Source: Escherichia coli (GTDB lineage Bacteria; Pseudomonadota; Gammaproteobacteria; Enterobacterales; Enterobacteriaceae). From it: a stretch of 58,632 nucleotides of DNA. The DNA lies in assembly GCF_003334765.1 (NCBI RefSeq), contig NZ_QOWT01000025.1; one strand, 5' to 3'. Every line of letters starts with the position of its first letter. Within the stretch, counting starts at the first letter, position 1. Shown here in pieces: positions 48,970 to 49,629 of this stretch. The translations under genes and the position numbers were made by a program. The notes beneath the pieces were generated by a model, which was given only the letters and a program-made list of their open reading frames with translations, was not told the DNA's origin and did no database searches.

Positions 48970-49629
48970 ACTTAACTCCACTGTCACACTTAACTCCCTT
49001 TCCCTTATTGGAATGCAGAGAAATAATCCTGAAGAATATGATTTATCATGCATATAAAATAAGAAAAAGCAAAATGAGTAAAATTCGGAAAACATAAAGA
49101 TACGGGTTCTGATAAAAACAGAATCCATTGCCGTGGAATGAGTCATTTACCACAGCATAATAATCCATAATGTTTTTGTTGCGAAAACAATCTAATCATA
49201 ACTACCGCGAATACTCAATCATCTACAAAATGGATTAAATGTGCTTATTTAATAATTAATTTATATATTTAATGCATTAATTATTAACATTAATGGATCA
49301 ATAATATTCACCAAATCAATATCAAAAAAAATTCGCAAAACATATAATTCAATACAAATCATCAGGATAGGTTTTGCAACGCGTGCATTTTGTCCCCTTT
49401 TTCCTCGTTGATTAGATGCAAAAATTTATTCTGAAATATGTCAACCTATGAAAAGTGTCGGTCGTTAAACAGAAATTAATATCGCTTGCTTTAACCACCG
49501 CAGCACAATTAGCTAATTTTACGGATGCAGAACTCGCGCTGGCGGGACGTTTTTATTGCGTCAGGGTTGACATCCGTTTTTGTATCCAGTAACTCTAAAA
49601 GCATATCGCATTCATCTGGAGCTGATTTA

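Follow-up and report, generated by a model that had tools for sequence, protein, structure and literature searches.

LeuO is a master antagonist of H-NS controlling CRISPR-Cas, virulence and drug-efflux genes, and silencing at the spacer that separates leuO from leuL has been studied for more than 25 years. The closest described system is the leuO-leuLABCD locus of E. coli K-12, where the P1 and P2 promoters, repression by H-NS and StpA, activation by BglJ-RcsB and autoregulation by LeuO have been characterized by the Schnetz laboratory. In K-12, as in Salmonella, leuO is kept silent through H-NS and StpA repression, and at least two leuO promoters, the distal P1 and the proximal P2, are located in the spacer (PMC5025477, PMC3950696). 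P2 is activated by BglJ-RcsB from a site found about 70 bp upstream of it (PMC3950696). The sites through which LeuO regulates its own gene are separated from the BglJ-RcsB site by more than 100 bp (PMC5025477), and LeuO site I is reported to be palindromic (PMC6698644).

A second system of reference is the ilvIH-leuO-leuABCD relay of Salmonella Typhimurium, described by the Wu laboratory mainly in leu-500/topA backgrounds. The relay is mediated by supercoiling, and involves a 72-bp AT-rich silencer, a cis-spreading H-NS filament (PMC4264507, PMC4770239) and LeuO acting as boundary; according to PMC4770239, a promoter relay operates in E. coli too. H-NS binds the Salmonella leuO promoter region, which features a "well defined" nucleation site, and silencing is relieved by transcription arriving from upstream (PMC6797219, PMC10981669). 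The Salmonella evidence comes from ChIP and the mapping of nucleation, that for E. coli K-12 from genetics (PMC5025477, PMC3950696). Deletions and insertions made in Salmonella have assigned silencer activity and H-NS nucleation to this region (PMC4264507, PMC6797219). No statement on H-NS ChIP at the leuO-leuL spacer of E. coli was found in the literature search. The bgl, proU and cas operons of E. coli resemble leuO, as they have an AT-rich upstream region, are silenced by H-NS/StpA and are relieved by LeuO and/or BglJ-RcsB (PMC5025477, PMC3950696, PMC6698644). Unlike these, leuO is an autoregulated regulator gene of the core genome, and a biosynthetic operon expressed at high level starts from the other end of its spacer, so that silencing must end before the leuL promoter is reached.

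The stretch of E. coli DNA analysed here, 58,632 nucleotides in length and hereafter called the window, hosts the same locus as K-12. The leuO coding sequence, delimited by open reading frame and translation, spans 48025-48969 on the minus strand, with the ATG at 48969-48967. It encodes a LysR-type regulator of 314 aa, annotated as such in the E. coli strain H3 and in K-12, and 99.7% identical to K-12 LeuO. On the plus strand leuL is found at 49630-49716, with its ATG at 49630, and is followed by leuA at 49809-51380. As indicated by the reading frames and by the H3 and K-12 annotations, ilvH, ilvI and leuO are aligned on one strand, and leuL, leuA and leuB diverge on the other. The whole ilvIH-leuO-leuLABCD region is inverted in the window relative to K-12. 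The divergent spacer covers 660 bp (48970-49629) and is bounded by the ATG triplets of leuO and leuL, precisely the limits set in an earlier reading of the sequence alone. The gene names given there are also correct, as the spacer is 100% identical to that of H3 and 98.6% identical to that of K-12, and leuO, leuL and leuA are annotated at the expected places. The RefSeq annotations of H3 and K-12, in which leuO, leuL, leuA and leuB are all as expected, report no feature within the spacer.

Gene order is the same in K-12 and in the window, and leuL with its attenuator is 100% identical. The spacer corresponds to K-12 coordinates 83709-84367, and the two sequences differ at 10 of 660 positions. 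The differences are strain-level substitutions, mostly found at 49283-49536, plus a 1-bp difference in length, and none falls in the conserved blocks described below. K-12 results therefore transfer directly to the window, and nothing in the compared sequences suggests that regulation differs. Two elements, a box resembling the BglJ-RcsB core and a palindromic AT-rich segment, occur in the window at the relative distances quoted in the K-12 papers. We hold with high confidence that leuO and leuLABCD, two divergent transcription units of E. coli, are regulated from this common spacer, and that it is silenced by H-NS. As such it is already known, being a textbook H-NS-silenced control region, and among the best-studied in enteric bacteria.

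The base composition of the spacer is extreme. GC content is 32.7%, versus 52.3% in the window, and the claim that AT content is far above the window average is thus borne out. When all the 660-bp segments of the window are considered (mean GC 52.3%, standard deviation 3.5%), the spacer lies about 5.6 standard deviations under the mean, and is the lowest-GC 660-bp stretch in 58.6 kb. Segments equally low in GC make up 0.07% of the total, and every one of them overlaps the spacer; the next lowest non-overlapping segment has 37.7% GC. The latter corresponds to another long divergent spacer (11279-11785, with a 100-mer of 22% GC at 11441-11540), located between pdhR-like and aroP-like ORFs. The ilvI-leuO intergenic region (47708-48024) is likewise AT-rich, with 30% GC over 47800-47999. 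It holds a small ORF of 14 codons annotated as YabR (about 47826-47870, plus strand) and, directly 3' of leuO, a terminator-like hairpin with a 20-bp stem (48022-47977, minus strand).

GC content is not uniform within the leuO-leuL spacer. The sliding-window plot proposed as a check places the 100-bp GC minimum of the whole window at 49234-49333 (14%), and the lowest-GC 72-mer of the spacer at 49234-49305 (12%). The AT run that had been singled out at about 49240-49300 is a 47-mer with 10.6% GC, found once, at 49250-49296. In the AT-rich core (49234-49333), defined by composition, palindromes, TpA density and alignment to Salmonella, TpA steps are four times denser than in the window (0.162 versus 0.042). 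The core also includes perfect 12-nt inverted repeats, as TTAATAATTAAT (49249-49260) pairs with ATTAATTATTAA (49276-49287), and a nested 12-bp palindrome, TTAATGCATTAA, at 49269-49280. Their distance from the BglJ-RcsB site is compatible with the separation of over 100 bp stated in PMC5025477, and on this ground the core palindromes are plausible candidates for LeuO sites, which in a LysR-type autoregulated promoter would be palindromes of the T-N11-A type. The core itself is probably the H-NS nucleation and silencer segment.

Sequence features commonly taken as marks of H-NS binding were searched for in the spacer. The published high-affinity H-NS decamer is TCGATAAATT. Allowing up to two mismatches, only one match with two mismatches was found in the spacer (49258-49267), and decamers of this type are not enriched relative to the rest of the window. 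Helical phasing of AA/TT at 10-11 bp is not significant, since 10-22% of dinucleotide shuffles reach the observed power. Curvature was predicted by a wedge model. The predicted median bend is 12.7 degrees in the spacer as compared to 8.8, and 25% of the spacer positions exceed the 95th percentile of the window; none of the ten highest predicted peaks of the window falls in the spacer, and the AT-rich core is not a maximum. The curvature plot suggested in the sequence-only reading thus reveals a moderate elevation, and neither strong curvature nor a peak at the core. Two of the ten highest predicted peaks are located in the ilvI-leuO intergenic region, at 47731 and 47907. Because motifs of the TCGATAAATT type and phased A-tracts are not significant, the case that can be made for H-NS at the sequence level rests on composition and TpA steps, and not on motif or curvature.

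Conservation was monitored in 80 Enterobacteriaceae loci identified by a LeuO scan, one genome per species, and the leuO-leuL spacer could be delimited in 79. Spacers range in length from 567 to 759 bp (median 635) and in GC content from 31 to 44% (median 34%; leuO has 48%, leuA 54%). In the 76 species outside Escherichia, identity to the window base averages only 0.50 and is patchy, and in the centre of the spacer it is only about 0.3-0.55 across species. In 55 of 80 spacers the lowest-GC 72-mer is nevertheless found within the part that aligns to 49200-49370. The architecture of the Salmonella locus is orthologous, with spacers of 645-655 bp and 33-34% GC, and divergent promoters and leader as in the window. 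In both Salmonella loci the lowest-GC 72-mer occupies the alignment columns of 49233-49304, in register with the window minimum at 49234-49305, although core sequences share only about 50% identity. On the basis of this alignment the AT minimum of the window would be the equivalent of the published 72-bp Salmonella silencer. Within Escherichia, divergence of the spacer roughly keeps pace with that of third codon positions in the neighbouring genes. Substitutions are concentrated at 49128-49148, 49370-49405 and 49485-49561, and spare the conserved islands, which are located where promoters and binding sites are expected. We infer that selection maintains the composition and central position of the AT-rich segment and the overall length of the spacer, the exact sequence being kept only at protein-specific sites. 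A drifting sequence with conserved composition, position and length would be expected where DNA serves as the platform of a protein filament and is recognized through its shape and composition, and speaks against passive filler as well as foreign DNA.

The first of these alternatives assumes that AT-richness is the passive outcome of relaxed selection and AT-biased mutation, and that only the promoter-proximal ends are functional, the centre being mere filler. The low identity of the centre among species fits this view, as do the pace of divergence in Escherichia, close to that of flanking third codon positions, and the failure to find either the specific H-NS motif or A-tract phasing. Filler, however, would be expected to change in both length and composition, whereas the 79 species keep both within the limits reported above; the AT minimum occupies the same central place in 55 of the 80 loci; GC content is not just low, but the lowest in 58.6 kb, well under that of the other intergenic regions of the window; and the Salmonella deletions and insertions (PMC4264507, PMC6797219) locate silencer activity and H-NS nucleation right there. 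We regard the filler explanation as improbable.

Three blocks strongly conserved on the leuO strand are found upstream of the ATG, at 49078-49099, 49035-49056 and 48960-48997. The block at 49078-49099 (minus strand), CTTTATGTTTTCCGAATTTTAC, contains TTTTCCGA (49092-49085), which matches the BglJ-RcsB core wwTTCykA (motif from PMC3950696). Of the 79 species, 71 have the match in the corresponding alignment columns. Scored by the 8-nt core, the motif occurs three times in the spacer versus 0.41 times per kb window-wide; position and conservation make TTTTCCGA a probable BglJ-RcsB activator site. Some 30-55 bp from the BglJ-RcsB-like box, on its downstream side, is the block TATATGCATGATAAATCATATT (49035-49056, minus strand; positions -87 to -66 relative to the ATG). 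It looks like a promoter, and few parts of the spacer are better conserved (0.73-0.81 identity in the 76 non-Escherichia species). Conservation and relative distances suggest that the block probably forms the core (-10 region) of P2, the proximal leuO promoter. A consensus scan for sigma-70 promoters identified a sole match on the leuO strand within the spacer, TTCGCA-17-TATTAT at 49157-49185 (minus strand). Conservation at these positions is only 0.37-0.46, and the site at 49185-49157 is a weakly supported candidate for the distal promoter P1.

The reading frame of leuO continues upstream of the ATG into the spacer. The sequence-only reading had noticed this extension and ascribed it to compositional chance rather than coding. 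The mechanical ORF does span 48025-49146 and has 373 codons for amino acids, corresponding to the 314 aa of LeuO plus 59. That the extension is non-coding is supported by its variability, since upstream of the ATG the frame is open over 6 to 81 codons in the 46 species with a LeuO alignable from the first residue, and over 24 to 38 in other Escherichia. Compositional chance is not the right reason, because stop codons abound in AT-rich DNA, and 59 codons remain open in only 0.8% of shuffles. The length of the open stretch is thus unusual, and could favour the hypothesis that part of the spacer is coding, either as an N-terminal extension of LeuO or as a translated small ORF of 28-45 aa; the K-12 LeuO protein record, now at version 4, may also reflect earlier revisions of the start. 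Open length is not conserved, however, and the extension has been rejected as coding sequence; the probable P2 promoter lies inside it; and the five small ORFs found in the spacer, being intact in only 0-4 of 79 species, have similarly been rejected as genes. A coding function for the spacer is thus very improbable, and only the last 6 codons of the extension, starting from a conserved GTG, are still candidates.

This GTG belongs to the third conserved block, the leuO translation-initiation region (48960-48997, minus strand), in which two units, each made of a Shine-Dalgarno sequence and a start codon, are set 18 nt apart and in frame. The upstream unit consists of GGAG at 48997-48994 and GTG at 48987-48985, the downstream one of GGAG at 48979-48976 and the annotated ATG at 48969-48967, and in both the spacing is 6 nt. 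The duplication arises from a tandem repeat of 18 nt that includes the annotated start, the direct repeat extending over 48960-48995. Nucleotide conservation of the region exceeds 90% across genera. The upstream position is occupied by a start codon in 72 of 79 species (GTG in 57, ATG in 15). Start codons are found at both positions in 64 species, at the upstream one only in 8 and at the downstream one only in 7, and no indel breaking the frame between the two was detected in the 79 species. The interchange of GTG and ATG at the upstream position reads as the signature of a used start codon. The proposal that a second conserved translation start is present 6 codons upstream of the annotated ATG is advanced tentatively, as a possibility that we consider rather less than even. 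LeuO might accordingly exist as two isoforms, of 320 and 314 aa; otherwise, the tandem starts might serve to control translation, and in some genera the start might be wrongly annotated.

At the opposite end of the spacer, column conservation in 76 species delimits the promoter of the leu operon (49566-49608, plus strand). The -35 sequence GTTGACA (49566-49572) is invariant, and the block TATCCAGTAACTCTAAAAGCATATCG (49583-49608) exhibits more than 90% column conservation. The predicted -10 sequence TAACTC (49590-49595) and the start region are presumably both within TATCCAGTAACTCTAAAAGCATATCG, as suggested by the spacing and by the K-12 annotation. The leu leader/attenuator RNA (49616-49765, plus strand), which comprises leuL and a terminator hairpin with a T-run, matches Rfam family RF00512 at 145.8 bits, versus a gathering score of 50 (E = 1.8e-33). 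The leuL peptide has 28 aa, encoded in part by four consecutive Leu codons, and either LLL or LLLL is found in leuL of all 79 species. Rfam scanning at a permissive E-value identified in the spacer no RNA family other than the leu leader. On the minus strand, the attenuator hairpin (49734-49788) scores 33.9 bits, below threshold; the weak score results from an A-run upstream and a T-run downstream of the hairpin, the form of a bidirectional terminator. A terminator-like hairpin followed by a T-run at 49533-49554, upstream of the leuL -35, was rejected as a conserved element after folding the equivalent 49 nt in 80 species (median z +0.39); only a short T-run persists across species.

The spacer was matched in 5400 of 5426 complete E. 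coli genomes (99.5%), with identity mostly at 90-99%. No match was found in 26 genomes, and coverage is below 80% in 21 more. In E. coli FDAARGOS_943 (L083, NZ_CP065615.1, 3287-4160) leuO and about 500 bp of the spacer have given way to an IS1A element; of the spacer only the 160 bp adjoining leuL are left, and ilvI is found on the other side. This natural leuO deletion spares the leu promoter, which is therefore separable from the AT-rich part. Two divergent Escherichia lineages, L004 and L005, were compared to the window over 45983-51380. Their ilvI, leuO and spacer are 83-88% identical to those of the window, and leuO third positions about 70%; leuL and attenuator are 99.4% identical, and leuA about 94.5% (84% at third positions). 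The sharp change in divergence across the spacer suggests that in these lineages a recombination boundary is located inside the spacer or close to it. A contig labelled 'Chryseobacterium sp. 18061' (L075, CACSKA010000010.1) also has leuO, leuL and leuA in the typical enterobacterial arrangement, its LeuO being 79% identical. Its spacer, 636 bp in length, is nearly the same as that of 'Citrobacter sp. 18056', and the assembly is probably mislabelled or contaminated.

It is extremely improbable that the AT-rich segment is a xenogeneic insertion between leuO and leuL, which H-NS would silence on account of its foreign origin, because, although AT-rich foreign DNA is a typical H-NS target and GC content is about 20 points under the genome average, alignable sequence occupies the same position in nearly all E. 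coli genomes and in 79 of 79 species, and the segment is devoid of mobile-element genes, flanking repeats, and tRNA or integrase context. A short leuO-leuL spacer of normal GC content was seen in none of the 79 species; the spacer is an ancestral component of the core genome.

The preferred reading remains that of a regulatory spacer silenced by H-NS, shared by leuO and the leu operon. Gene context and the literature on H-NS and StpA (PMC5025477, PMC3950696, PMC6797219, PMC10981669) speak for the nucleation and silencing element recognized in the sequence-only reading, and gene order along with PMC4264507 and PMC4770239 for the ilvIH-leuO-leuABCD transcriptional relay evoked there. Three parts may be distinguished in the spacer. 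The leuO end carries a ribosome-binding region, what is probably the activator-dependent proximal promoter P2 with the BglJ-RcsB box upstream of it, and probably the distal promoter P1. The middle is formed by some 100-150 bp of extremely AT-rich, TpA-rich and partly palindromic DNA. At the leuL end, the leucine attenuator is preceded by a sigma-70 promoter that is strong and conserved. Going by the published experiments, H-NS and StpA are expected to nucleate on the AT-rich centre, and to spread as a filament over the leuO promoters, holding leuO silent. Silencing may be counteracted or modulated by LeuO tetramers bound to palindromic sites in or beside the core, and by BglJ-RcsB bound to the putative box about 120 bp upstream of the leuO ATG. 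Divergent transcription from ilvIH, leuO and leuL would generate negative supercoils coupling the three promoters, in the manner of the 'promoter relay' (PMC4264507, PMC4770239, PMC10981669).

What is new here is the family-wide picture, drawn from 79 species, of a conserved AT-rich centre combined with discrete sequence islands; current understanding of the locus is unchanged. The compositional call made by scanning the bare sequence proved reliable, and the tandem starts raise a small annotation question on the leuO start codon. It is the regulatory reach of LeuO that makes the silencing of its own promoter worth understanding.
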